A stretch of DNA of 64,000 nucleotides, from positions 1,116,001 to 1,180,000 of the forward strand of contig CP142729.1 in NCBI GenBank assembly GCA_036630325.1. Direction: 5' to 3'. The position numbers and the translations under genes were made by a program. The notes below the pieces were generated by a model. That model did not search any database. It saw only the letters and a program-made list of their open reading frames with translations, and had not been told where the DNA came from. This DNA is from Vairimorpha necatrix. Lineage: Eukaryota. Positions 1,205 through 38,574 of the stretch are shown one piece after another. Each line of letters begins with the position of its first letter. Position 1 is the first letter of the stretch.

Positions 1205-4200
1205 TTATGACTCTTTATCTTGAAATATCTCCATGAAGTTATATCCACTATAAAATTCCCCTGGTATTCCCAGTTCCATTTTATATTTCATCTTATCATC
1301 ATATTCTTTTATACTCATATTATAGTTCCATTTCTCTACTGTATAAATATACCCTTCTTCTTTTATATATTTAATATTCCCTTTATTTATATTTATTTCT
1401 TCTGTTACTTTTATTATTAGTGGATCTTGTATTTTATATTTCTCTACTAGTGAGTTTATAATACTTTCTATATTTGTATTTATTATTATTCCTAGTATTT
1501 TATTAGAGATGAAGTCTACTGAGTGGACTTGTACATCTGAAGAGAATTGGGGGAGAAAACACATGGAGATGACGTCAGTGTCTTTTATAAGGAGAGTGAA
1601 AGAAATAGTATTTATATCTGTACATCTCTTGAATATCTTAATAAGATTACGGGGGATTTTTATATACTCATCTGGAATAATGTTATTATTATCTTCATTA
1701 TTATATGTATACTTTGTTTGTTTCTCAATAGTACTTACTTCTTTATTATATTTCTTATTACATATTTCTTCTTCTGTATTATCTTTATTATTATATTTCT
1801 TATTTGTACATATTTCACTTAGATCTCTAGTACATATTTCTTCTTTAATAGTATATTTCTTTTGTAGTAGGTAGTCACTCATTATTAAATATTTCTCTTC
1901 CCATGTATTTCTTCTATATCTTATTTCTTCTCTATTATCACTAAACCCGAATATTATATCTCTTATATCTGTACTCAGTAGTGTATATTTATTTATACAT
2001 TTCTCATTACAGTATTTATTAATTATGAAATCTTTACATTCTTTTTCTATTTTGATCCATTCTTGGTCTGACAAGATTGTATCAAATGAGATGTCTTGAG
2101 ATATTTCAGGGGCCTGGATTAGTAAGACGAGTCTACAGAATTTAGTGAAGGAATTTACCCCGAACCAGTTTTTATATAAATTTATAATAAATGAATCAAC
2201 TATATTATAATCTTGATTATTATTCTTAAATCTCTTACTATCATTATTATAATTCTTATTTTTCTTTTGTATAAGTCGCTCTAAATTGAGTCTGTTCTCA
2301 TATATTTTTATATTTATCTCTTTATATTCTATCATATGACTTTCTACCCCATCATATAAATCTCTTCTTACCAGTAAATTACTCTTCTTAAGTATCTTAC
2401 TCAATTCTAATACTATCTCCCCCGCTTTATATTTCTTATCTCTGTTTTTATTCCCTTCTATCTTTTTTATATACAAGTTCCCTGTCTCCGGGTCTAATAT
2501 CAAGAGTGTATTCTTATTGTATAAGATCTTATCTTCTACTATGAGAGACGAGTGATACATTTCCTTAGAAGAGACTACTGTCTCTATTTCTGGAGTGTAG
2601 AGGTCTAAAGCGCTTCTTATTCTTTCTCTTAAGATATGTAGACTTGTATTATTCTTAAGAATAATATTAAGAATATCTTTAAGATATTTAATATAATCAC
2701 AATAATCTAGTCTATTTGAATTATCTAATTTTTTGGAGTTATCTAGTCTATTTATATTATCTAATCTACAATCTAGTATATTTGAATTATATAAGCCTAC
2801 TGTATTATAACATAAATCAAATACAATCATAATACCATCTTTATCATCTATACTTGTCAATTTCTCATAATACTTAACTTTCGCATATTTATATGTGTCA
2901 TGTTTATTATAATTCCCCCATCTTAATTCGACATCTATCCACATCTTCTTTTTCTTATTAAAATTCCCTATTAGTTCATTTCCTTTACATTCACAATATT
3001 TACTCATCATTCTCATTATATCTTCCATTATACTTTGTTTGATTTTATCCCATAAATTATTCCTGAATATTTGTATAAATGATATCTTTAATGTTGGTAA
3101 TTTCCCATACATATTTATCTTAGTCTTGTCTATTTGACTTTCATAACCTACATACACTTCACTAGTGTTTATAGTGGGAGACCACCATAAAATGAATCTT
3201 CTGTTTGGGATTTTTGATAGACCAGATTTTTGAGCTTTAGTCATTTTTAGATTTGGAGATTTTTCATGCCAAAATAATTTTGAGAATTCTTTTAAACCGA
3301 CCGCATAAAATAGAGTATGATATTTTATATTATTTGTCGTGTATGAATTAATATTATTTGTTGAGGATGACAAGGACGTCTCTATTTTATTCGTGCATGA
3401 TGAATTATTCGTCAAGGTTGAATTTGTCGAGATTGAATTCGTAGTGTATGAATTATTCAAGCATGAATTATTTAAATTTGTCGAGATTAAATTTCCCATA
3501 CCCCCGTAATAAATAAGTAGATTATTATTATACTCTTCTAAATTATAAAGTTTCCCATCATGTACCAAATTTGTATAAATAAATGGGTCATATTTCGGAC
3601 TTATATATTTTCTGAATTCTGCTTGTAATCTGAAGTCTCTGTCGAAATATGAAGATTTATCTTTTTGAAGTAAAGTAGACATTCTTGGGAGACCTTTTTC
3701 AGGGTGAATTTTCTGAGATTTATAGAAGTCTCTCCATACGAGATCTGATTCCTTAAATTCGTCCTTCCATGATTTTATATAAGATCTAATATCGAATTCA
3801 TTTGTGTTTAATTTATTTATGTTCATGCTTGAATTTGATTCTTTTGAATTATTTATGTTCATGCTTGAATTTGTATTTGATTTATTTAATACATTTAAAT
3901 TTAATACATCTTTCTTTTCATCTTTATTATGACATATAGAGTACATGTTCAGTCCCCCATATTCCTTAGGAGCATAAAAGATTATCTCTGGAAATCTCAC
4001 TGGCATTTTACTATTTATTCCTTTTTTAATTTGATCTTGTATTTTATACTCATATTTCTTTATTTCTTCTATATCTTCTTCTCTTATATATTCCCTGTAT
4101 CTTGTTATAAATCCCAGTAGAGTATTATTCCACTTATTTATTGTTTTTATAAATGTACTCTGAGTACTGAGTCTTATTATTTGATTTATTCTACTTTTAA

Positions 4201-7053
4201 ATATTTCAAGAGTTCTTTCCGTGAGTGAGTATTCTATATTATATTTATGCATATTATGCATATTATACATATGTTCTTTTTTATTTTTATTATGCATTTG
4301 TTCTTGTTTATTTATGCAGACTTGTACTCCCGCATACTCAAATTTAATATTCCCAAAATTACTCTCTATATTATTACTCTCTATATTATTACTCTCTATA
4401 TTATTACTCTCAAATTTAATATTCCCAATATTAATCTTCTCTATGTTTATTTGTCCTATACTCCTTGGTAATCTTCTTCTTATATTGTCTTCTTCTTCTT
4501 CTTTATTATTCTTCATTATATAAAATCTGTTCATGTTTCTTATTAATATTCCTTTTCTTCCAAATACTACTAAGTCTATTACTAAAGTATAGAATTTATA
4601 AATAAATGCACTAAATTGAAATCCCTTAAGAAATCCCAAGTGATTTATAAAGGACATGTCTTTATAGAAGATCTTTATATTATTCCTACTTATCATGTAG
4701 TCTACTAGAGAAGGATCAATGAAGATCTTCAATAGTCTAGAGAGGAGATTATTATCAATATTCATCATGAGATCTGAGTAAGATCCGACTATTAAATATT
4801 TATTATTATAAATATTCTTATTATCTTGTATGGATTTGTCTTGTATTGATTTAGGCAAATTTGATAAATTTGATTCATGCAAATCTAAATTATTCAAATT
4901 TGTTTTATGCAAATTTGTTTCATGCAAATTTGATTCATGCAAATCTAAATTAGATAAATTTGATTCATGCAAATCTAAATTAGATAAATTTGATAATGTA
5001 ATTTCTTGGAGATCTCGCATCTCTAGATTATTCCCAGGCTTGATATATTCAGGCCATATCTTCTCACTCTCATAAAATAAATATGTACTCAAATATTGAT
5101 CACTAAGTCTCTCTATATAATTCACTTTATAATTACAAATATACTCCCCATAATTATAAACTATTTTGCATTCTACATCTCTAAACTTCCTCTGAGTCAG
5201 AAGATTCTTCTGTATCTGGAAAATATAATAACTGGGATTTAAGAGTACTTTATTATAGAAATCTCTCTCTTCTTCATTAGCAGTCATATTTAGAATATTA
5301 ATACTTATATTTAGTAAGTTTATATTTGTATCAGGAAAGGGTATCTTTTTTTTATTCTTGAAATATTTATAGGTTTCTTTGAATAACCTGCGGCTTCTAA
5401 AGAAGACAAAGATAAATTTAAAAGATAAGATTTCTGACGAAATATTTCTTCCTTAAAAAATAAGCGAGTTAATTTCCCCAAAAATTTAGAAAGAACTTTC
5501 TTACTTAATTTCTTACTTGTATTCTTACTTAAGTTAGAATAATTAATGACTTGATTAATGTACCAATGACTTTTTATATTTACATATTTCTTAATAAATA
5601 TATTTAACTTACTATCAAATTCTATACTATTATAGATAATATATTCTTGATTAGATTTCCATGATCTCCAGGATTCATTAAAATGTCGTAATATCATCTT
5701 TATTTGTCCTCTACTATATTCCCCTTCTAATTCATCTATCATCTTCTCTTTTATCTCTATATCAAATTCACTCTCTTTCCTCTGCTTAGTAATCTTCTTC
5801 TCTCTGTATTCCCTGCCATTTATTATTCTATCTGTCAGATTACTAATATACTTCTTTAATAAAGAATTATACCCTCTAGTCATGAAGACATACCTTCTCC
5901 AGAGATCTGGCCAACATGAGGAGAGACCTTCTACATCTTTATTGATTTTTATTTGTTTCATTATTTTGTATTTATATCTATAAATACCAGTGTAGATACC
6001 AACTCTACTAAATAAATCCCACATATTTAAACATAATTTGACATCTACACTATTTATATTATGTAAGTTTATTTTATCTATGTTACTACCTCTTTCTACA
6101 TCTTGAAGATGTAAATCACTTATAAATTTAAGAAGTTTTAATAATTCTCTTGTTAAATGGAAAGAAGTCCCCAATCGGGACTTCTTTCTTTGTTTCGTAT
6201 TCATATTCCCTGTATTTTTAAGATTAAAATTCTTATCTAAAAATATAAAAGGCAATTTCTTCCTTTTTAATATCTCTGATAAAATACTGTGTCCTTGATT
6301 TAAAATAATCAAGGAAATCTCAGGCCAGGACATTTGTGTAGTCTGGAAAAAACGAGTGTTTTTTAAATGTCTCAAAATATTTGAACATCTTTTGGATTTT
6401 CTGGGACTTTTTAAATTTAATTTGGTATTTTTTAATAAGTGGAATGTAGTGGAAGTAGGTGGTAAATGAAGGGGGATGTCATAATAATTAAACTTCTTAG
6501 AATTCTTATTTTCCAAATCTTTATTCAATATATCAGAATAATACTCTTTTATAGAATCATCTTCTATAGTAGATGATTCTATAATATTAGATTTATCATC
6601 TACTATAATATTAGATTTATTAGATTTATCATCTACTATAATATTAGATTTATTATGTTTTATAGAATTAATAAATTCATTAATATCATAATTAATAAAT
6701 TCATTTATATCATAATTATTAAATTCAATACTATCATTATTATTTTCTTCTCCATATACTGGATATTGATACTCAGGATTATCTTTCTTAAACTCTTCTA
6801 CTTTTTTACTTATCTCATCCCATCTTCTCATATATTCATACTTGGTCATCTTAGGCTTACTAAGTACAAAACTTATACTCCCATTTATATGGTAAAGAAC
6901 TTTATACTTCTTATTATATTCCCAGGGCATGGGAATAGATCTAAGTAAAGTGTGTATAGATAAAGGGAGATATTTAAAACAGCCTGGGGAAATATTAAGA
7001 GGGGATTTCATGAGGGATCTTAAGTGTTCAACAGGCATATCAAACTTCTTCAT
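1205..7053 (-). CDS. PRP8: Pre-mRNA splicing factor Prp8, one gene broken by a single frameshift at ~5320-5450
   Basis: Prp8 motifs in both ORFs: MPVEHLR, PMPWE, FFQTTQMSW, DKNFNLK, RKKSRLGTSFHLTRE, TGIYRYKYKIMKQI; then LLTQRKF, KGINSKMPVRFP, IPNRRFILWWSPTIN, GKLPTLKISFIQIFR, LRWGNY, LRERIR. ATG at 7053 follows a CCCC motif. The second frame is open upstream of 5287 and reads KKKIPFPDTNINLL, matching the Prp8 IPFP segment. Confidence 0.93.
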
Positions 7054-7579
7054 AATAAAATAATGGGGCAAAAAAAAACATGAGATAAAAATTCAAGAAT
7101 AAATTCAAATATTAAATGTATTTTGGTATTCACAGTGGAAATGTCACGACTCTAAGTCCACGCGGGAAAAGAAACTTGTGTAATATTAGAAAGAGGGTAG
7201 ATTATCACAATAAACTCAGTATGCGATAAATATGATCATATAGTACTCAAATTTATAAATTACACTCATTATTTATCACATATTTATAAACGCCCAGATG
7301 ATGTGCTAGTTCTTTATGTATCAACATATTACAATTTGTCATATGTAACTACGGGGATCATCAGAATCACAAATATAAATTTTCCATAATAAAATCTAGA
7401 TTGCTTTTATTCTACTTTTATTTCCCGACAAAATGCACAATTTAAGAATATTTTAGATTTACAATCTTCTAATAAGAAGTCTAACTTAGAGACCTTTTTG
7501 ATCTTTGGGTGTGTATAACATTAAATCAACTCTAAATATTGTTAATACACTTCTGTTTATTATTAAATAATTTTGAATT

Positions 7580-15551: not shown

Positions 15552-17025
15552 TACATAATAAAACTATATCATCAATGACATCTCCAATGAATTGCAATGG
15601 TAATTTGAACGTCTTTTACATTGAATATTCGTTGTATGTATAATATGCTAAATATTATAAGAAAGGGGTTTTATTTAAATATATCAGTCAAAAATACATA
15701 TTAAAAGCGTCTTTATATTGTTTGCAAAATTTTCATATTGTAATTCTAAATCAATTTCCCGTCATTTTATTGTTGCATTCGATAGATTTCTCGTAATAAA
15801 ACTATTTTACAATCTCTTTAATAGATTAGTTTTATATTAATTGTGTGGTCAATTTCCACTTTACATCCCTTCATATATAAATACCAATTTTTAAAAAAAT
15901 ATCCCTTTTCTGGAAAATCAAAACGTAAACAAAAAGGATGAGAGATTAAATAATTTATAAAGTAGAAAAAAATAGTTTAATAAGTTCTAATTTGACCATA
16001 TTATATGTAAAACATAATAAAAAATTAAAATGATGATTATTTTGTTTAAATTAGTAATACTAGATGTCTAAATGCATATTTTACCTTGGGGAGGTATGGC
16101 AAGCTGCGGATGCCGTAACATTTACGTTGAACTAGTTAGATTCAAAACTGAAAAGTGGGTCAGACGTGTATTCTCTTAGAAATATGCTGAACGCAGGTCA
16201 CAGACAGTAATTTTTGTGGTTCTAATCCTAATGGATACTTATTCTCCTACAAGCAAAGCCTTTATGGTATGATGATGCGTATCACAAGTTATTGGCTGTT
16301 AAAGTTTTTATTTGTTAGGCGGTTATTCTTTAATAACAATATTAGTTTTTTAGTTTTTTCTGTCTAAATGCATAAAAATATTTTTATTTTCTTATGTCAT
16401 TATAATTATATTCTAATGCCAATAATGATATTTTCTTTATTTTTATATTTTATAAAAACAGATTTTAGGTTTGGTTTTATTATTTTTTTTACTATCTATA
16501 AAAAATTAGATATTTGGAGAAATATTTGTTTTTATAGACGATGAAGAAGTTAAATTCATATTTGTGTTCTTTAAATTATTCGTATGTATTTTATATCAAC
16601 GAAAGGTGAAACTTAAAAATTTGCCCACTATATGAATAATTTCATTTTTTAATATTGATATATGTTTTTATTTATAGCATTATAATCACGCATGTTAAAT
16701 CTTTTATCTATATTCAGTATAATTACAGCTCCTTATACAATAAATGTATAAAAAGCACGGATTTAATCGAGTAGATAGTAGATTTAAGAAATAATAAAAC
16801 AGAATTTATTTATTTTGGTTAATGTTGTTTTATCATTTTTTTTAGATTCTTCTTCTTCTAGTTCTAATCGCTTTGAATTTTAAAAATCGGGGGATGTTAG
16901 GTTTAAAAATTTTTATTTATATATGTTTAGGTGTAAAGTCGAAATTCTCCAATTGTGTATCGTTTCTTTTGTTAACGCTTTGTCTTGTCTCTTATTATCC
17001 TCTTTTTTATACTTTTCTCTAATGG

Positions 17026-17187
17026 AAATTCAATTTTTATCAGTACTTTTTTAAAAATTCAATTTTTAATCAGTATTTTTTTGAAAATTAATTTTTAATC
17101 AGTACTTTTTTGAAAATTAATTTTTAATTAATACTTTTATAAAAATTCAATTTTTAATCAATATTTTTTTAAAAAATTCAAATTTTT
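17026..17187. repeat. ~30-bp AT-rich tandem repeat, about 5 copies (aaaattcaatttttaatcagtactttttt)
   Basis: Directly visible degenerate tandem units. Confidence 0.8.
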
Positions 17188-17744: not shown

Positions 17745-20700
17745 TGTCGTAGCCGATCAAATGCTGACCAATCATATTCTTACAAATGGACTGATTTGAT
17801 TGGCTACAAAAAGTATTTAAAAACATTTCCGAAAGAGGGGATGGAAAATCCAAATAAAACATTTGACATGGCGACAACGACAAACAATGTCGGATGCTTC
17901 ACAGGAGAAGCAGGTGAGGATGTAAATGTCTGGCTGAGAGACATAATGTTGGTAGGGGAAGTTTCGAAATGGACCAATGATCAATTCAAAACGGCATTGG
18001 TGAGCAAGCTCAGGGGGAAAGCATTATCATGGGCTTCCCAGACATTAGGCGGGAAAATGGAGACAGTCAGCTTAGAGGAAATACTTCATTTAATAAAGAA
18101 AAGATTTGGATCGTATAAGAACAACGATATAACACTAAGCAGGTTCCTCTCAATAATGGTCCCGGAAACGAGAGAAGATTACTCGCAGATGCTACAGGAA
18201 GCTACTGTAATATATGAGAGATCTCTTATAAATTTGGACGCTTTGTGCCAAATGGTAATTAATAAATCACCAATGGAGATAAAAGCTCTGTATACCAGAC
18301 CGCAACTATGGTCCAGACGTGGCAAGGATTTATACAAAAGGCGGAGGAGATATCGTGGATTTTATATCCCGATAAGATGTTAGCTAGGACTAAGCTACAC
18401 GACAACGCGGGCAGAGGGCCCCACACTAATTTTTACAAAGAAAAAGGATTTAAAAGAAACATAACCCATGAAAAACTACCGCGGCATACTAATAAACGGT
18501 GCACACTCCACGGGGAATGTAACCATTCCACAAGAGACTGCAAAGCACTTACCATAATACTCAATAGAGAAAGAAACAACTTGAAGAGAAAAAATATAAA
18601 TGCCGTTGAAGAATACGAAAGTGACGAGAAAGATCATGACAATAAAGAAATTGAATTCTATTTACATCATATACAAAATAGTTTTAACCCATTTTTTGTG
18701 GAAAGCCGTCTCTTTAATAAAAATACGAAAGTACTACTAGACACTGGGGCCGATGTTTCGGTCATAAATTACAATGATATTCCACAAGAAGAACGTAATA
18801 AGATTATTAGATATAATGGCGTAGTAAAAGGTATAGGAAATGAAATATTAAAAATAGAAGGCTATTTAAAAGACTGTATAATCGAAATCAATGGAAAAGG
18901 TGTGATCTTCTCACCCTTAATAATCAAAGACATAAAATATGTTATAATAGGAGCAAATGTAATATGCGACAATAAAAAACTGATTTTAGATATTCTAAAT
19001 GCACCAAAATATAGAATCAACCAAATGTCGAATTCCGCATGTGATTTAGAAGAGAACAAAATTTTGAAAGAGTACGAGGACGTCTTCAAAACAGAAATAA
19101 GCGACTATAACCTCTGCACTGCAGGTAGTCATCGTATACAGACGAACAGTACGAAGATAATTTGCCAAAGGAACGGAAGAATACCAGTATCACAAGAAGA
19201 AGCCGTAAATGAAGAAATCAACAAACTCCTAGAATTTGGAATTTTAAGGGAAAGCAGAAGTCCCTGGTGTAGCAGAATACTGATGGTACCGAAGCCTGAC
19301 AAAACATGGAGAATGTGCGTAGACTATAGAGGTCTGAATAGCATAACAGTAAAGGACGCATACATGACACCTAGAATCGACGAGATTTTTGACAGTCTAT
19401 CAACTGCAACTATTTTTACAATACTGGACGCGACTAGTGGATTCCATCAAATTCCTTTACAAGAAGAAGACAAGGAAAAGACAGCATTTTCGTATAGGGG
19501 GAAATTATACGAATTTAATCGTATGCCGTTCGGACTATGTAACGCCCCAGCAACATTTCAAAGGGCAATGGACAATATATTCAGGAAAGAAAACCATAAT
19601 TTTGTGATCCCATACTTAGACGATATTATAATATATTCAAGGAACAAGGAAGAACATAAGAAACATGTGAGAATAGTATTGGGAAAAATAAGAGCGGCAA
19701 ATCTATCGCTTAATAAGAAAAAGTGTAAATTCTTTAGATCGGAAATAAAGATCTTGGGGAACGTCATTGGAAACGGAATCATAAAGGTAGACGAAACGCG
19801 CATTAAGGATATACAAGCGTACCCAATTCCTACCACCATAAAGGAATTAAGGAGTTTTCTAGGAATGGCCAACTATTGCAGGGATTTTGTGACAAAGATG
19901 GCAGAAATTACGGGACCCTTGTATGATGTACTTAAGGGCGAAAAACAGACATCTGGTAAAAAAAATTAAACTTACTGACAAACAGCTGGATACGTTTAAA
20001 ACCGTTAAAAAAGTACTAAGCCAAAATACAATACGTACACAGCCAAATTTTAAAGCTCCATTCATTCTGGTTACTGACGCATCTGAAACGGGAATAGGAG
20101 CAGTGCTGCTGCAAAAGAACAAAACTGGAGCTGAAAAAATGATAGCCGCCTTTAGCAAAAGACTAGATAATTGTCAGAAGAATTATTCAGTTACCGATAA
20201 AGAACTTCTTGGCTTGGTTAAAGGAATAGAACATTTTAGACATTACCTTTTGGGAAGCAAATTTACGCTCAGAACAGACCACAAAGCCTTAATCTATCTA
20301 TGGACAGTGAAGGATCCAACTAGTAGGATTCTCAGATGGGCACTCAAATTGGCGGAATACGACTTCGAATTGGAGTATATAAAAGGAGAGCATAACATTG
20401 CTGATGGCTTTAGTAGATTTCACCAAGAGTGTGAAACATGTAACATTGATTTACATCAGTTATCGAATAATAATATCAACGACATACTAGAGGAGTACCA
20501 TAAAATATCAGGGCATGGGACATCAAATACCATGAAATTTATGATTTCACAGGCACATAAGTGGAAAACAATGCACCAAGACATTTCGAAATTCGTAAGC
20601 AATTGCAAAACATGTCTTCGTTCGGGATATCAACGCGTGAAGACAAAGAACAAAGTAATACTTTCAGAAAGACCCAATCAGCTGTGGGAATTTGATCTGC

Positions 20701-21599
20701 TTGGAAAACTTTCGGACAACAGCGGAAGCGGATACATATTTGTAGCGATCGATCACTACTCTAAATGGATAGAAACCAAGATCTTACGAAGCAAAAAGAG
20801 CTGTGAAATATATAAGGCGATCGAAGAATTAATCATTAGTAAGCATGGGATACCCGAAAGAATCTTGACAGACAACGGCTTAGAGTTTGACAACAGCGTG
20901 GTACAAGCATTAGGTTCAAAGTATAATATATCATGGGAATTTTGTTCGCCATACCATCACCAGACTACAGGCGCGGTTGAGAGGGTCATACAAACATTGA
21001 CGAACAAAATTAGAAAATTAGCAAACTATGGCGAAATTGGCTGGAGGAAAGTTGTCAAAGAAGCTACATTGGCAGTAAATCTATCGTTTAACCGATCAAT
21101 AGGAACATCGCCGTACATTCTAAAATACGGTCAGCAAATAACAACAGCCATAGATGAGAGAATAGGAGTTACCCCTAAGACCTATACGAAGCAAGAACTT
21201 TTACGGAAGAGGGACTTAAACTTTAAAAAATACAGCAAATACATCGTTAAAGGGAAAAAAGATATAAAGCAAAAGTTTAAAATAGGAGAAGATGTTTTAG
21301 TTTACAGAGATTACCCAGGAAGTGGAAAGTTAGAAGCTAAATGGTCACCTGGTTATATTATTGTCAAAATTTTAAGTGAAGACGCATTTCTGGTAAAAAG
21401 GAAAAATTCAGCAGGCGAATTGAGAGTTAACATAAGTCATATTAAGAAGGACACGTCGAAGACTGATTGAGGGGGTGTCGTAGCCGATCAAATGCTGACC
21501 AATCATATTCTTACAAATGGACAGATTTGATTGGCTACAAAAAGTATTTAAAAACATTTCCGAAAGAGGGGATGGAAAATCCAAATAAAACATTTGACA
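17745..21599 (+). mobile_element. Full-length Ty3/gypsy LTR retrotransposon, element 1
   Basis: 124-bp TG...CA LTRs (17745-17868 and 21476-21599, one mismatch), 5-bp TSD gtatg, PBS TGGCG, PPT gaggggg, and gag-PR-RT-RH-IN domain order. Confidence 0.97.
17868..21470 (+). CDS. Gag-Pol polyprotein of element 1, with frameshifts near 18290 and 19960
   Basis: Gag FTGEAGEDVNVWL; CxxHxxxxHxxxxC knuckle variant (CTLHGECNHSTRDC); protease LLDTGAD; RT MCVDYRGLN and YLDD; RNase H TDAS/TDHKAL; integrase HH-CC with DLLG/TDNG/VER. Confidence 0.92.
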
Positions 21600-25809: not shown

Positions 25810-27610
25810 TCGATGAATTGAGGGATCGGAGAATTCACCGGACACCTTACAGGTTAGATGGATTACTTTATTAAGGGTTAGTGGGGCTGGAGATTGTAGA
25901 AAGCCAACGGAAATTATCGTATTAAAGCTTGTATTTATAAAAGACCGGATAATTTTAGTGAGCTACGTAGATTTTTTAAGTCGACAGGATGGTTCAATGA
26001 ATTTATAGGAAATTATGCTATGTGTAAAAAAGCGCATACGGGCTGAAAAAAAAGAGATAAAATGAGTGTAAATTTAATTTATTGAGGGACGAATTGAGAG
26101 ATATAAAAATGTAAAAACTCCCGATTATAAAATTTATTTTAATTGAGAACTATTGCCACAGACACAATATGGAGCAATATTAGCACAAAAAATAGGGAAA
26201 TGGTTTCTTAATCAGTAAATTTTCAAAAAGTTGACTCCAGCAAAACGAAAATACTGTATTGTTAAAAAGAAATGTAAGCAGCGTTTGGAGGTATAAAAAG
26301 TTTGTATACGAATTAAGAGGTAGAAAATTTGAACTACAGACAGATCATAAAGCTGTAGAAGCAATGAGATTTAAAGATTGCTTCAATAACAATAGAATAA
26401 AACGTTGGATCGTGAAAAAAACAGAGTTCGATCTTACAGTTAAATGAAAGAGAAGAAACGAAGGCAGATGTAGAGGCTTTAAGCAGACAATTTCAAGATG
26501 ACGGTAATTTATATAATTAAAAAGAGATTTTTAGAAAAAGAACTAAGGTAATAAGTAAAACATACACAAGAAGTAAATGAAAAATGTTATGGGAGTTTTC
26601 ATATAGACAAACTGCGATAGCTCAGATAGCTCAGATAGATAAAAGTTAATTAATGACAAACATATGGAAATCAATCATCAAGGAATGATAGATGCTTTAT
26701 TTGAGTTGAAAAAAAATGGTATTTGTTGGGTATGAAGGAAAATACAATTAAAATATAAGAGAGAATGTGAAACGTCAGACGTTTAACAGAAAGAACAGAG
26801 GCTATGTGGAATTTATCGCTACTCCACGAACAGGAGATAATTTTGGTAAAATATAATGGAAATGGGAGATCCAAAATGCAATGTTCTTGCAGACATCAAT
26901 TTAATTCGAAATATGCGATAGACCAGTATTGAATAAAAGACATAATATTAATGTTAAAAGACGATGAAAAACTGGTTCAAAGAAGAATGTGTATCAGAAA
27001 GGATAATTAATGTCAACGCAAAATCATTTTTTTGCAAAGAATTTCAAAGATCATTAAAGTATATAAGACGTATCATAAAGTAAGTGTTAAAAGTCATGGT
27101 AGTAATGGAAGAATAGAATGATTAATTAGACTTGTGCGAGAAACTATACTTAACCTAATTACGATATCTTTAAAGAGAAATTAAGCGCAATCGATGTATA
27201 TCCTAGAACGTACCACAGTGGAATAAAATGTAACTGAAATGAACCAAGGAGTGAAATTTCTAGCTACGGAAAATTAAGAATCTAAAATGAGAAAGATGGT
27301 GAGTATTCAAGGAAGTTTAAGTAACATTTAGGAAAATTTAAGCTGAGTTATAAGGTTTTTGTAGTGTGAGAAAAATTTAGCAAGATGAATGAAAGATAAA
27401 AAAAAAGATACGTAAATGAGGAAGTAAATATAGAAAAATGCGTAATCGTTTGTATTTAATAAGGTACTATAATGTTACGAAAAAAGAAGAGACTATGTGA
27501 TATAAAGGACTGTGTAAGGCGTAAGAAAGATTTAATGTAAATGTTAAGGAGAGTATCCATCTTGAGGAGGGGATGTAGGATTTATTTTATAGCAAAAAAT
27601 TGTTAGCATT
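25810..27610 (+). mobile_element. Decayed Ty3/gypsy pol remnant (RT thumb, RNase H, integrase, PPT), related to element 2
   Basis: Broken frames read SELRRFFKSTGWF and ELRGRKFELQTDHKA...FNNNRIKRWI, close to the element 2 protein. PPT cttgaggagggga followed by TGT at 27574. Confidence 0.85.
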
Positions 27611-27836
27611 ATATAACTGAAAAATTTGCATATATAAAAAATCGAATTAATCATTATTTTATAGTTTATTAGAAAATTATTTTTTATAAAAATTTTGTGT
27701 ACAATTAATGTATATATTTATCTGATATTTATAATTTCAACAGAGCTTAGTAAGTAAGTGCTAGAGCTGAATTTTTTTTGATTGGATTTCTAGGGTTCAT
27801 AAAAAAATTCCGTACTTATGGCCAAAATATATAAAT

Positions 27837-30800
27837 TGTATTTATTTATCATAATGAGGGTAAAAATTATCAAAATATATAACATCCCCCCTCCAAGACG
27901 GTTAGTCTCACTTTATCCTTAACCCAAGCAGACTTTTTAGATCATAGTGCCTTTTCTTTACATATCTTCCATTTACTAACTTAACTATATAAGAATCATT
28001 GCCACATCTCTCTATAACTTTCCCACTCTCTAAAAACCTACCTTTCGAATATTTATCCGCACCTTTCAAGTTTTCCTTCTTAGCTACTCTCACGTACTCA
28101 CCTACTTTAAATTTTTCCCTTTTCCCCCTGTTAAACAGTTTTCCATATTTCCCTTGTGGGCTATTTTCAATCATTACATGTCCAGTTTTATCCTCTGTCG
28201 CTTCTATTGGTGTACATTTTAGTGCCGTGTGGTAACTCATATTATATTTTTCAATGCTTCCCATGACCTTCTCTGCAAATGTACCTTCTTTAGTCTTCAG
28301 AATGCTCTCTCGCAGCGTACCTATAACCCTCTCGACTCTGCCATTACTCCTGTGTGATTCGACACTTACTTTCCTATGTTTAATTTCTAGTCTGTTACAC
28401 AACTCTCTAAACCCCTCATTGATAAATTCTCGCCCATTATCCGTTATAATCTCTTCGGGCTTTTTTCCTTGTTCACACAACTTACTTAAAAATTCTGTCA
28501 CATTCTTTCCAGTCTTGTTCTCCATTACCGTGCCCCATACTCTTCGAGTGTAATAATCTATCGCAACCAATACGTATTTACCTGCGTCTCTAAAATCAAT
28601 GAGATCCAAAGCAACCTTTTCTAAATAACGTGTAGTATCTACAAACTCACATCCACCGAGTCTTTTTCTATTATATATTTGACATTGTACACACTTTCGA
28701 ATTGTCTCATTTATGTCTTTCTTTATTCCGGGCCAATAAAATCTTTCCCGCATCGCGTAATATACACTTGTCATACATCTATGTCCAACTTTTTCGTGGT
28801 ATTCCTGCATCAAACTTTCCCTTGACTCTTCTGGTGGTATCTCGACTTTCCGTCCTGAATCAAATCTCCAATATTTTTTCCCTTCTGCGTCATCGACGTG
28901 CGCTTTCCATTTGCCCTCTATCTGCTTGGCGGTCCTTTCTCTGATTTTCTTTTTCCTTTCATCGTCTTCCATATGTATCCTGCTTAACGCGTCAGCCACC
29001 ACCATTTCTTCTGGTTTCTTATATTCTATGGTGAAGTCAAATTCCTGGATCTTTTCAATCCATCTATTTATTCTATTGTTATTAAAACACGGTTTATTTC
29101 TAATCTCAACCAAGGCTTTATGGTCCGTCTCGATTTTAAACTTCCTACCGCGCAACTCGTATTCAAATCTTTTTATCCCCCAAAATACCGCGTACATTTC
29201 TTTCTCCGATATAGTATATCTGGTCTCTGTAGGTGTTAACTTTTTTGAACTCCATTGGATTGCTACCCATTCATCTTTATCGTTCTTCTGAAGTAACACG
29301 GCTCCTATCCCTACATTGCTCGCGTCCGTTCTCAATATAAATTCCTTCCTATAATCAGGCAATCTAAGTTTCCCCATCGCTCTCAAAACTTCTTTCAGCT
29401 CTAAAAACTCTCTATTCATTTCAACCGTCCATTCCCACTTCTTATCTTTACCTCTCAAGCTATCTGTCAGATGAATAGTTAATCCCGCGTAATTCTTTAT
29501 AAAGTTCCTAAACCATCCTGTCATTCCTAGGAATCTTCGTGTTTCACTTACACTTGTCGGCTGCGGGAATTCTAACGCCTCGTTCTTCTTTATTTCATTC
29601 GCTTCAATATCTGTACCATTCAATGTGACTCCTAAGAGCTTAACTAACTGTTGGCTAAACTGTATCTTCTCAATATTCAATCTCATTTTATGTCTTTTTA
29701 ATCTTTCCAATGCTTCCATAACTAGCTTGTCATGCCTTTTTTTAGTTCTAGCGTGTATAACGATGTCGTCCATATATACCTCCACTCCTTCTCCTTGTAA
29801 ATCTTCAAATATTTGGTTCATTATTCGTTGTAATATCTGCGGGGAATTTTTATATCCCATTACCATACTGTTCCATTCATATACCTTTCTGTTAAATTCA
29901 AAGGCCGTTTTGTGCTTATCCTCTTCTTCAATCTCTACGTGGTAAAAGCCTTCCTTCAGATCTATAACGGTAAACCATTTAGACCCCTGTGTGGCTCTAA
30001 CGATGTCCCTAATATTTGACAACTCATACGGATCTTTTTCAACTAAGTCATTTAAACTCATTAGATTACTTACAAGCCTTACTCCTCCGTTAGGTTTTAC
30101 TATAGCTCTAATTGGGTTCCTCCACTCGGATGTTGACCTTCTTATAATCTTTCTTTCTTCCAAACTTTTTATATATTTTTCAGTTTTTTCCATCAACGCC
30201 TGTGGGATAGTTTGTCCTCTTTTAACTACTTTTTTCCCTGGTGGCGTCTCAATTTTACATTTCTCTATCTTACAGTGTACGATCTCTTCCTGCTGCAAGT
30301 CAAAAATTTCTCTAAACTTCGCTTTTATATCTTCAATGACAAGGCCCTCTTCTATTCTATCCTCTCTCATTCCTCTCCTTTTTGAATTTTGTTTACGTTT
30401 TGCTTCTCCGCATTTCCTATATTCTTGTGCGCTAAGTTCTGTGGTTGTAGATCCACTCTCTTCATGAACCCTTAAATACTTGTTAAAATGTTTATTTTTA
30501 TTATCTTCTTCTTTCCTCTTCCTTACGAAGCAATCTCTTGCCATGTGCCCAAATCTACCACAGTAAAAACAATCTCTACTTCTTACTCTCGTAGTTTCTT
30601 CCCTTATTTTTCCTAATGCTCCTCTATTTACCAGCTCCTCTCGAACTGTTCCTCTAACCGACTCTGCAATTATTTCCATCATCTTACTTTTGTCTTCTTC
30701 TTCATTCTTTTTTAATTCGTCCTTTCTAACCTCCTTTTCCATTTCTTCAATAATTAAGGACCAACTATCTTTTTTTTAATTCTTTCTACCATAAAGTTCT

Positions 30801-31010
30801 TTACTTCTTCCGAACCCATTTCATAAATTCTTGCCTTCCATAGAGACTCATCTACTCCATCCAACTCTAGCTTATAAACTATTCTTTTAATTTCTTGTAA
30901 CATTATTCTGGCCTCTTGACCACAGCCATCACTTGTTGACTCTCGATTTGGTATCGCCCCCATGTAATTATTTATCATAATGGGGGTAAAAATTATCAAA
31001 ATATATAACA
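27837..31010 (-). mobile_element. Compact Ty3/gypsy LTR retrotransposon, element 2 (3174 bp, 48-bp LTRs)
   Basis: 48-bp TG...CA repeats at 27837-27884 and 30963-31010 (2 mismatches), 5-bp TSD taaat on both sides, PBS TGGGGGCG, PPT ggagggggga. Confidence 0.95.
27908..30963 (-). CDS. Mini-Gag / RT / RNase H / integrase polyprotein of element 2, with a -1 shift at the A8 run 30770-30777; no protease motif
   Basis: CCHC knuckle CFYCGRFGHMARDC, RT YMDD, RNase H TDAS/TDHKAL, integrase HEKVGH...CVQC with DLID/TDNG/VER. The 944-aa ORF is uninterrupted from before the knuckle to the end of integrase. Confidence 0.92.
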
Positions 31011-31928
31011 TAAATATTAAATTGTATAAATTTTTTTAATAAGCTTTGACCCTAGTAATGCCATATTATGATTTAAACATATGCTTAAATATTTTAAATT
31101 TATGCCAACCTAATCTCATCATCGTTACCATAAATGAATTTAACCATTTATAAAATACAATACATATGTTATTATTTTATCTATGTATTAAATTAAAAGA
31201 TAACATATCTAATATAAATACTAAAATTATAATTTATTACGCTGAACACATTATAACTAATTCCAAGAAAGTTATCAATAGACGTTTTTATATAACCGTT
31301 TATATCTTTATTTATGTGTTTAGGCTGGTCTATAATTTTTCAACTAATGTCCTTTGACAAATAATTTTATGCAAATGGCCTAAAAATATAATCTGTGACG
31401 TAAAAATCATGCCATTTTTTCTTAGTAGCCCATACTTTATATCACAATATATATTTTATTTTTGATATATTCAATGGAATAAGTTCTTGAAATTATATAT
31501 TGTGATTTTTTAAATTTTAGATTTCTTAAATCGTAATAATTATGACACTTTTTCAGAATGTAATTTTTTAAAAAAATTTTAAACTGGCGTGCTGCATAGG
31601 GATGCAGCATTTCAGAAGGAATAATTTAGAAAAACATATGTTTTGCCACCTGTCTCTGGCAGGCCTTTTGCGCTTTGGAAGTAACCTGTTTATTTGGTTG
31701 CTCCTTGTATGGCATTGTGTGGTTAAAAATAAAGTATTTAAAAATAAGCAGTAGGATGAAATATTTGGAAATTGTAATGTACATCCGATAAGAAATAGAG
31801 ATGATCATTTGGTCATAATATCACATTTTATATGCCTATAAAACACAGAATTTAGCATTGTGAAATTTTTATATACGTTAAATGTGGACTGTTCCACATT
31901 AAAATAAATAATATACAATATTTTTGCA

Positions 31929-37251: not shown

Positions 37252-38574
37252 TAATTATAAAATATTTTAAGAAAACCAAAATAAAATTATTGTTTTATAC
37301 GCACATATCAGGCTTAAATAAAAAAAATTTATTGTGTCATTTTTAATCATTAAATAAGATTTATTTAAATAAATTTAAATTTAGCATAAAAAAATATTTA
37401 AGAAAAAAAAATCCATATTCACAAAAAATAGAATACTAAAGATGCAGCATATGAATAATATGGCATTTCTTAAATTCAAAATCACATGGATTAAAAATGA
37501 ACATGAACTTGTTTTGTAAATATTCTAAAATAAAAATGCTTTAATGCATCATGATACAGATTTTAAGACAAGAACTTTTTTGAACTCCTTAAGTGAAGGT
37601 TATAAAATTTCACAGCAAAATGTTTTTTGAAAAAGAAACAATCATAGAATACTTAAAGGCTTTAACTTATAAAGAAATATGTCAAATGAAACTATTTGTA
37701 ATATGAACTTTGTAATTTCACTTTCAAAAGACATATGCTATTGTTTTACAATTAGAGGCATAAAGGAAGAAATATTAAAAATGATCATCTTTAGTGAGTC
37801 ACAATCCACATAATAATATAACTTATAGTGATGAATTGCTGTGCACTTAAAAGGTCGACCATATAGTTATATAATGTGTGAATCTTATAAACACGGATGT
37901 ATTTCTTCTTATAACTATATTTAAAAGAATATAAACATTTTTTGCTAAAAATAAAGAGAAAAGAAGAATTATTCAAAAGGTAAGATCGAAATATTGCACT
38001 TATTATCACAAGAATATGATGTGCCAAGAACAACGTGTTTGATGGGGGACATGTGTAGCAATATAAAATAACTTGTTAAGAAAATTGTGCTTAAGATAAC
38101 AGCCATGCAATGGCAAGCTAATTGGGGGAATGTGTAATGAAAGAAACTACAATAAGAATAGTATTACCTTGTATCGCCCCTTAGTCCTGTTGCGACTTTG
38201 AAAATATCTATGAAGTTGAAAACATAATATTGAGGATACTAATAATTTAGGCCCGTACAATATATAGTAGAAAATCATTTATGATATTTAATTAAAAAAT
38301 AAAGGAACAGCGGAAGTCTATGTTAAAATATTTGTTGTGGATCGACGATTCAAAGATAATTTTGGTAACAAAATTCCCCTTCACTTAAAATTATCTTTTA
38401 CAGTATTCCATTATGAATTGTAATTTGAAATATAATATTCAAAAATATTATACTCTGCGGGGAGGTATCAAAAAAATAAAATTTTTGCTAGTTAAATGTT
38501 TTTTAGTTGCTTTACACTTGTGTGTTTGAATTAAATCCCATAACATTACTGTTTCACAAAATTTTTACCCCTAA

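Follow-up and report, generated by a model that had tools for sequence, protein, structure and literature searches.

Retroviruses, like retrotransposons flanked by long terminal repeats (LTRs), have been regarded as needing a protease of their own, maturation of Gag-Pol being thought necessary for reverse transcription and integration. Ty3 of Saccharomyces cerevisiae produces Gag and Gag-Pol via frameshifting and has LTRs of several hundred bp. The LTR retrotransposon described here occupies 3174 bp on the minus strand (27837-31010) of a 64,000-nt stretch of the Vairimorpha necatrix genome (GenBank assembly GCA_036630325.1, contig CP142729.1, positions 1,116,001 to 1,180,000), which we call the window and in whose coordinates all positions are given. 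It shares with Ty3 the order reverse transcriptase (RT), RNase H, integrase, the H2C2 and DDE domains of the integrase, LTRs of the form TG..CA and a target-site duplication (TSD) of 5 bp. Its best matches among solved structures are Ty3 Gag-Pol (7q5b, E 9.5e-68) and the Ty3 RT/RNase H (4ol8, E 4e-57), and its RT, RNase H, integrase, LTR ends, TSD and polypurine tract (PPT) together establish Ty3/gypsy descent. Unlike Ty3, which has a retropepsin and a two-lobed capsid, it has LTRs of only 48 bp, no protease and, in other copies of its family, a single open reading frame (ORF); residue 161 of the ORF in the window already aligns with residue 585 of Ty3 Gag-Pol. The element is a protease-less Ty3/gypsy derivative and not a canonical member of the group, since the protease is missing and a capsid is unproven.

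Other mobile elements share one or another of these features. The single gag-pol ORF recalls Tf1 and Tf2 of Schizosaccharomyces pombe, and one relative of the window element (P0006) is labelled 'Transposon Tf2-9 polyprotein'. Tf1 has a protease, however, and its transcript acts as its own primer through the first 11 nt. Against the 11 nt or so that self-priming of this kind would call for, only 6-7 nt of the LTR of the window element (CCCCCA) can pair with the primer-binding site (PBS), and there is no such pairing in L004, a decayed relative found as DNA. DIRS/Ngaro-type retrotransposons also do without a protease, and they use a tyrosine recombinase and have odd terminal repeats, whereas here there are a DDE integrase, plain direct LTRs and a TSD. 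SMART elements such as FRetro129 and TRIM elements have very short LTRs and 5-bp TSDs, but they encode nothing and need helpers; the window element, whose LTRs are even shorter, codes for gag, RT, RNase H and integrase. With RT, RNase H and integrase complete, it falls outside the non-autonomous class of TRIM, SMART and LARD elements. The 85-bp repeats of FRetro129, from a plant, have been termed 'very short' (PMC3281118) and are the shortest LTRs for which the literature search found that label.

Closer to the host, Parisot et al. (2014) described Ty3/gypsy groups found only in microsporidia that have a single polyprotein instead of gag and pol (PMC4202319). The single polyprotein and the microsporidian host are what those groups have in common with the window element, a likeness drawn by description only, and 'protease' as a word is absent from that article. 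The Nbr polyproteins of Nosema bombycis have five domains, including a protease, in 'nearly all' cases, according to the portion of a second article that cites Xu et al. 2006 (PMC2474625). A literature search, with supplementary files and repeat databases outside its range, returned no description of a protease-less Ty3/gypsy lineage or of LTRs this short, and an earlier description is possible.

The element comprises the features listed below. X1 and X2 are two of four public sequencing runs whose contigs were compared with positions 27600-31300, and L003 is a relative found as DNA.

31011-31015, no strand: TSD copy beside the 5' LTR, TAAAT on the plus strand; present once in the empty-site contig of run X1
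30963-31010, minus: 5' LTR, 48 bp, TGT..ACA, direct repeat
31007-31001, minus: TATA-like TATATAT in the 5' LTR
30992-30982, minus: T-run and CCCCC in the 5' LTR
30978-30976, minus: in-frame ATG inside the 5' LTR
Within the 5' LTR, minus: AATAAT/AATAAA-like signal
30940-30962, minus: PBS-like stretch, starting with TGG directly after the 5' LTR, translated M-G-A-I-P-N-R-E
30963-30961, minus: second in-frame ATG, spanning the LTR/PBS border
30769-30978, minus: gag part 1, small helical domain, in another frame in this copy; homologous to the N-termini of single-ORF relatives
30770-30777, minus: run of eight A, one base short in this copy; one X1 contig and three X2 contigs have the extra base
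30572-30775, minus: gag part 2, modelled as a long helix at aa 2-40 of the 944-aa ORF and then, up to the knuckle, a stretch of low confidence
30530-30571, minus: CCHC zinc knuckle, aa 58-71 (PF00098, E 8.6e-05)
30329-30529, minus: knuckle-RT linker, aa 72-138, basic, of low complexity and predicted disordered; the usual place of the protease
29447-30328, minus: reverse transcriptase, aa 139-432
28973-29431, minus: RNase H, aa 438-590
27911-28945, minus: integrase, aa 600-944, made up of an HHCC zinc domain, a DDE core and a beta domain at the C-terminus
27908-27910, minus: stop codon of the 944-aa ORF
27885-27910, minus: 26-nt block ending in the PPT, 23/26 identical in L003
27885-27894, minus: PPT GGAGGGGGGA, directly before the 3' LTR
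27837-27884, minus: 3' LTR, 48 bp, with an exact AATAAA and two positions different from the 5' LTR
27832-27836, no strand: TSD copy beside the 3' LTR, TAAAT on the plus strand

The two LTRs are identical at 46 of 48 positions, and a 39-nt LTR pattern matches the whole 64-kb window twice, once in each LTR, where 100 shuffles give an expectation of 0. Coding sequence makes up 97% of the element, leaving about 100 of its 3174 bases non-coding. In the 944-aa ORF (27908-30742, minus strand) Pfam places zf-CCHC at aa 58-71, RVT_1 at 215-374, RNase H at 438-568 and integrase at 636-790, the last divided into an H2C2 zinc domain (636-692) and a core (712-790). The families RVT_1, RT_RNaseH, RT_RNaseH_2, Integrase_H2C2 and rve follow in that order, so that the element reads knuckle-RT-RNaseH-integrase. 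An original prediction made from the letters of this DNA alone had put the element at 3174 bp, with 48-bp LTRs, a TSD, a PBS, a PPT and an uninterrupted frame from knuckle to integrase; all of these were recovered, the PBS as a PBS-like stretch.

What is missing from this order is a protease. In the 944-aa ORF no protease family is found in Pfam at E <= 1, and there is no D[ST]G motif before the RT, as the original prediction had said. The knuckle and the RT are separated by a linker of 67 residues that AlphaFold models predict to be disordered (pLDDT, the predicted local distance difference test, about 30 over aa 81-132) and without strands. Elsewhere the models show RT, RNase H and integrase folded with confidence, apart from a second short low-confidence stretch at 583-597. 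In a comparison with a protease-bearing Ty3/gypsy element elsewhere in the window, the two RTs align without a gap from aa 139 here and aa 252 there, and the spacing from the knuckle or knuckle-like motif to the RT is 67 aa here versus 172 aa in that neighbour. With RT homology beginning at aa 139, the gap is 64-67 aa, longer than the figure of about 50 aa first given.

The absence extends to the relatives, which we defined as the 54 protein-search matches at 36-94% identity, above a drop to 35% or less. They span at least three named genera, and the named members include Vairimorpha necatrix, Nosema granulosis and Enteropsectra breve. The precomputed Pfam lists contain a protease family for none of the 54. 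The gap between knuckle and RT is 32-112 aa in 42 of the 43 relatives in which it can be measured, the other 11 being fragments without a knuckle; the one exception, P0042, has 172 residues of Glu/Lys-rich low complexity. Four members with the longest gaps or with a stray DSG or DTG yielded no protease family at Pfam E <= 1, and the DTG of P0011 and the DSG of P0004 were rejected as proteases because their gaps are too short and Pfam is negative. Across 24 aligned members, no protease occurs among the families listed (25 of 57); Peptidase_A17, named for three of the 24, sits on the RNase H part below the cut-off and was set aside. We also built a retropepsin profile from six protease segments, taken from distant matches and the neighbour element. 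It found all five held-out controls (E 3e-5 to 4e-29) and none of 56 targets from the clade at E < 0.05, the best reaching 0.058 (5.4 bits) with filters off. An exhaustive search with a gag profile, in which the knuckle had been left, was swamped by multi-knuckle proteins (7585 matches); it added 21 single-stretch gag fragments, four of which reach the RT through linkers of 50-85 residues.

These elements form one group. In a maximum-likelihood RT tree (294 columns, quick search; 116 of 122 rows, six with short RT matches left out), 49 protease-less rows, namely 48 relatives and the window element, lie on one side of a branch with a Shimodaira-Hasegawa-like approximate likelihood ratio test (SH-aLRT) value of 100, and the protease-bearing neighbour lies on the other. 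By this tree the protease-less lineage is real and monophyletic, and the reduced lineage postulated in the original prediction can be recognized in it. A protease in the relatives or a retropepsin fold in the linker would have spoken against that proposal, and neither turned up; a second copy of the element, in run X1, is collinear over 3100 bases with a length difference of one base.

In members of the lineage the part of gag that precedes the one zinc knuckle is only about 125-165 residues long, and the internal region is almost wholly coding. Many families, at 44-66% identity, have uninterrupted ORFs of about 1,000 codons. Across 24 sequences 43-62% identical to that of the window, the knuckle ligands C58, C61, H66 and C71 are invariant and are the only invariant columns before the RT; D261, D325 and D326 of the RT, D473, E513, D540 and D584 of the RNase H, and H649, H654, C684, C687, D713, D768 and E804 of the integrase are invariant as well. 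Because many families keep uninterrupted ORFs and the catalytic residues do not vary, the lineage looks functional. In about 15 of 24 aligned members an N-K-x-x-x-N-Y-like motif stands 8-20 residues past the knuckle (aa 80-95 here), followed by a K/R-rich patch; judged from the alignment, a cleavage site, a nuclear signal and a piece of an RNA-binding region are among the roles it might have.

The copy in the window is itself crippled. Its first 73-78 gag codons (30769-30978) are out of frame with the 944-codon ORF, the switch falling within the A-run at 30770-30777, a frameshift that the original prediction overlooked. Its estimate of about 130 aa before the knuckle stands when the two frames are joined (73-78 plus 57 codons) and fails for any single frame of this copy. 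In the relatives the ORF is continuous, its N-terminus corresponding first to the upstream piece and after that to the beginning of the long ORF, and one contig of run X1 and three of run X2 have one more base in the A-run, which merges the two frames. Since the relatives and these contigs read through the A-run in one frame, the family has one ORF, of about 1,020 codons, and the window copy, or its assembly, has lost one base. A programmed -1 frameshift at the A-run was rejected, as the relatives and the other copy have one continuous frame.

The insertion is real, because a 443-nt contig of run X1 joins 27832 to 31012 and thereby skips 3179 bases, exactly the 3174-bp element and one TSD copy. 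Its flanks show 20 differences from the window over about 340 positions, and the contig comes from a related strain or species that lacks the insertion at this site. A 3101-nt contig from the same run follows 27880-30979 collinearly; it has 13 substitutions and a single extra base, the one that closes the frame. Word depth in X1 is 20.4 for the element contig but 3.9 where the site is empty; such depths do not count copies, and the difference is no more than a hint of several of them. In runs X2 and X3, contigs pass from the LTR end (27839) into flanks unlike those of the window. Over 27724-31071, run X2 contains the element without its flanks, in 945 contigs whose word depth is very uneven and very high. 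The closest named relatives of the element belong to Vairimorpha necatrix; one of them, P0002, is 94% identical overall and 98% over the RT part, and is damaged by an internal gag deletion, a mutated knuckle His and a missing end. The window around the element has 22-38% G+C and ordinary eukaryotic genes, including Prp8, eIF6, Brix, Nop and MCM. These observations show that the element belongs to an LTR retrotransposon with several copies and recent mobility, whose host is a microsporidian of the Nosema/Vairimorpha type.

The second unusual feature of the element is its LTR. Counted from the first base, TATATAT occupies positions 4-10, the T-run and CCCCC positions 19-29 and an ATG positions 33-35, which puts the TATA about 29 nt and the T-run with CCC about 4-8 nt before that ATG. 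The LTR-internal ATG is in frame with a second one made of the last LTR base and the TG of the PBS, and the next eight codons are the PBS itself. Host genes of the window have the same motif: CCC lies within 20 nt upstream of five of ten long ATG-start host ORFs, versus 151 of 2375 ATGs in the window as a whole. The sequence before the Brix gene, TTTTTACCCCTAAATG, is a host example of T-run, CCC and ATG. The T-run and CCC motif precedes, by a few bases, host ATGs at window positions 38562, 9707, 35992 and 54134 on the plus strand and 63886 and 7078 on the minus strand, and for eIF6, MCM and Prp8 it indicates a different start codon from the one that the ORF finder lists first. For Nosema ceranae, Cornman et al. 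(PMC2685015) report a cytosine triplet after a T run no more than 15 nt from the start codon and a TATA peak near -27. Judged by its sequence, the LTR of 48 bp resembles a core promoter of the host type (TATA, T-run with CCC, ATG) plus an AATAAA; in the 3' LTR, as in those of L003 and L004, this AATAAA overlaps the opening codons.

Translation probably begins at the LTR-internal ATG, because 17 of 23 aligned relatives have extra M-x-x-x-x-x codons ahead of the Met at the LTR/PBS junction and P0017 has the upstream Met only. The peptide M-G-A-I-P-N-R-E recurs in P0002, P0033, P0125 and P0269. N-myristoylation of an M-G-A start was set aside, since most relatives have M-A and the upstream Met precedes it. 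In the proposed scheme, the first 25-30 nt or so of the LTR would be U3, the remaining 20 nt or so would serve as the repeat for first-strand transfer, polyadenylation would take place at or just past the LTR end, and translation would begin within the LTR and continue through the PBS. A hairpin is predicted in the leader at 30957-30986 (minus strand, z -2.1), where CCCCCAU of the LTR pairs with AUGGGGG of the second start codon and first PBS bases; such a fold might hide the PBS or that start codon, or be due to chance. The 64-kb window contains no tRNA gene to match the PBS-like TGG stretch.

DNA of relatives was sought in three collections. A metagenome scan gave two decayed, incomplete copies without repeats (L001, L002), a viral collection gave none, and a genome collection gave three contigs in bins labelled bacterial: L003, intact except for a missing 5' end, and the decayed L004 and L005. 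In L003 (50% protein identity) a TGTT...AACA stretch of 38 nt follows a near-identical 26-nt PPT block, and in L004 (44% identity) a TGTT...CACA stretch of 47 nt precedes TGG/ATG. The PPT block (27885-27910, versus 2698-2723 in L003) is identical at 23 of 26 positions at only about 50% protein identity, which suggests a conserved cis signal reaching beyond the purine run. Those bins held no further clade member with both LTRs, though many other retroelements. The bins labelled Clostridium and Turicibacter (L003-L032) gave 52 and 16 polyprotein-profile matches, a contamination by eukaryotic repeats.

How could such an element transpose? We lean, without strong conviction, towards the view that it works with no retropepsin of its own, its polyprotein left uncut or clipped by proteases of the cell, with an LTR that acts as a host-type promoter plus AATAAA and contains the start of translation. 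A single polyprotein, consisting of the helical gag, the knuckle, the disordered basic linker, RT, RNase H and integrase, would then function without a retropepsin encoded by the element. The polyprotein of about 1,020 residues may stay uncut, or cell proteases may clip it non-specifically in its pair of disordered linkers, at aa 81-132 and at 583-597 in the 944-aa ORF. Fusions of RT and integrase are active in avian retroviruses, and the RT of Ty1 works when fused to integrase. Gag and pol would be made 1:1 and gag is very small, so that a classical particle would be doubtful. A bolder form of this view, which we put forward only tentatively, is that the lineage gave up particle maturation altogether: one uncut gag-knuckle-RT-RNaseH-integrase protein would bind its own RNA, copy it and integrate the product, much as the protein of a non-LTR element does, while keeping LTR, PBS and PPT chemistry. 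The LTR would then be a bare host core promoter and poly(A) signal, and these elements, at about 3.1-3.2 kb with 38-48-bp LTRs, would be the smallest self-sufficient LTR retrotransposons known.

Several observations weigh against the view that the element works without a retropepsin of its own. The window copy is frameshifted and gives no evidence of its own competence. Its 12 listed substitutions relative to the X1 copy are four synonymous and eight non-synonymous, which is indistinguishable from neutral decay and too few for an inference of selection; the comparison of non-synonymous with synonymous change among copies that was proposed at the outset was thus made on one pair and was uninformative. 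Among the listed sequencing runs that contain the element, none is on record as RNA. The LTR lengths of the relatives are provisional, as each comes from one LTR. The silence of Pfam is weak by itself, because only 10 of the 66 more distant matches list a protease family; the argument for the absence of a protease rests on the missing space and the custom profile. The genome also has a helper available, the protease-bearing Ty3/gypsy element in the same window (17746-21599).

The small gag adds to these counter-arguments. We modelled the first 230 residues of relative P0005 from an 11-row alignment; with pLDDT above 90 the model has short helices at 13-34, 39-49 and 52-61 and a long helix at 68-112, followed by the knuckle and a disordered stretch at 146-198. 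The best Foldseek rows for this model are the C- and N-lobes of Arc and the Ty1 capsid domain, all weak (E 3.7-10), and VIA-align matches C-terminal domains of Arc over 63-70 residues (Z 5.7-5.8), alongside many helical proteins that are unrelated. No gag family of Pfam matches the 11 N-terminal parts at E <= 10. A language-model search gave gag, Ty3-capsid and Arc-like clusters at 0.84-0.87, below the level that counts, and a comparison of the N-terminal model with viral predicted structures gave weak rows only (best E 0.08, template modelling score 0.19). A single capsid-like lobe with a coiled-coil-like helix is possible on the basis of the model.

The main alternative, which we think rather unlikely, is that the lineage is semi-autonomous: it would keep its own gag, RT, RNase H and integrase but have its polyprotein cut in trans by a retropepsin that protease-bearing Ty3/gypsy elements of the cell provide. 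A possible donor, whose second ORF (18308-19969) encodes an RVP domain at aa 134-219, lies 6 kb away in the window; it shares the gag start at the LTR/PBS border, and the N-K-x-x-x-N-Y-like motif of about 15 of 24 members would offer a candidate cleavage site. Such an arrangement would, however, require a foreign protease throughout dozens of families at 44-66% identity in three or more named genera, and the linker that would be cut varies from 32 to 112 aa and is little conserved. A retropepsin also travels in its own Gag-Pol, and the two gags are so dissimilar (hhalign probability 0.3%) that co-assembly is not expected.

Two further explanations concern the protein and the copy themselves. 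A protease of an unrecognised kind might be hidden in the polyprotein, for instance in the helical N-terminal domain or the integrase tail; the first 120 or so residues have no Pfam family, none of the 11 N-terminal parts has a convincing match beyond zinc knuckles, and N-terminal fold matches are weak. We consider this very improbable, given that the N-terminal region is predicted with high confidence as three short helices and one of 45 residues, which is not a known protease architecture, that the only invariant positions before the RT are the four knuckle ligands, with no conserved set of Asp, Ser, Cys or His, and that RT, RNase H and integrase folds account for the remainder. We give almost no credence to a private deletion of the protease in this copy or to the lineage being a dead relic. 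The gag frameshift and two LTR differences of this copy, and the damage to the 94% identical P0002, would fit such ideas, but these are contradicted by the architecture that all 54 relatives share, many of them having unbroken ORFs of about 1,000 codons, by the empty site in a related organism, by the frame-closed copy in runs X1 and X2 and by the single branch in the RT tree.

The neighbour element that supplies the comparison throughout, on the plus strand at 17746-21599, is likewise unusually compact at 3.85 kb, with 123-bp LTRs that are 99% identical and a TSD of GTATG, and frame changes have broken it into three ORFs. The original prediction had assigned it an ordinary protease, and its RVP domain confirms this. 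It resembles the protease-less element in host, compactness, 5-bp TSD and a gag ATG across the LTR/PBS border, and its RT is 32% identical over 293 aa, but it has RVP, longer LTRs and a longer gag and falls outside the protease-less RT branch. A gag start at the LTR/PBS border is thus wider than the lineage, and the lost protease, small gag and shorter LTRs are what set the lineage apart. Just upstream of the neighbour, at 17004-17175, an AT-rich unit of about 29-30 nt is repeated in tandem. Elsewhere in the window the Prp8 gene (1205-7071, minus strand) consists of two ORFs (1205-5287 and 5320-7071) separated by 32 bases; an intron, a stop or frameshift, or an error of sequencing may account for this gap.

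Beyond the features already proposed for this DNA, the single-base loss in gag, the probable start inside the LTR with a translated PBS and the host-promoter-like LTR are new. LTR finders that work from structure usually look for a protease domain and for LTRs no shorter than about 100 bp, and elements such as this one would be missed or called fragments in microsporidian annotations. A long-lived, diversified lineage without a protease is a natural system in which to ask whether cleavage is required and how small an LTR, a gag and a leader can be. An LTR that copies the start-site motif of its host would be a compact case of a mobile element fitting itself to extremely streamlined transcription, and if the LTR has indeed shrunk to a bare promoter and poly(A) signal, it would be microsporidian transcription that makes this possible.

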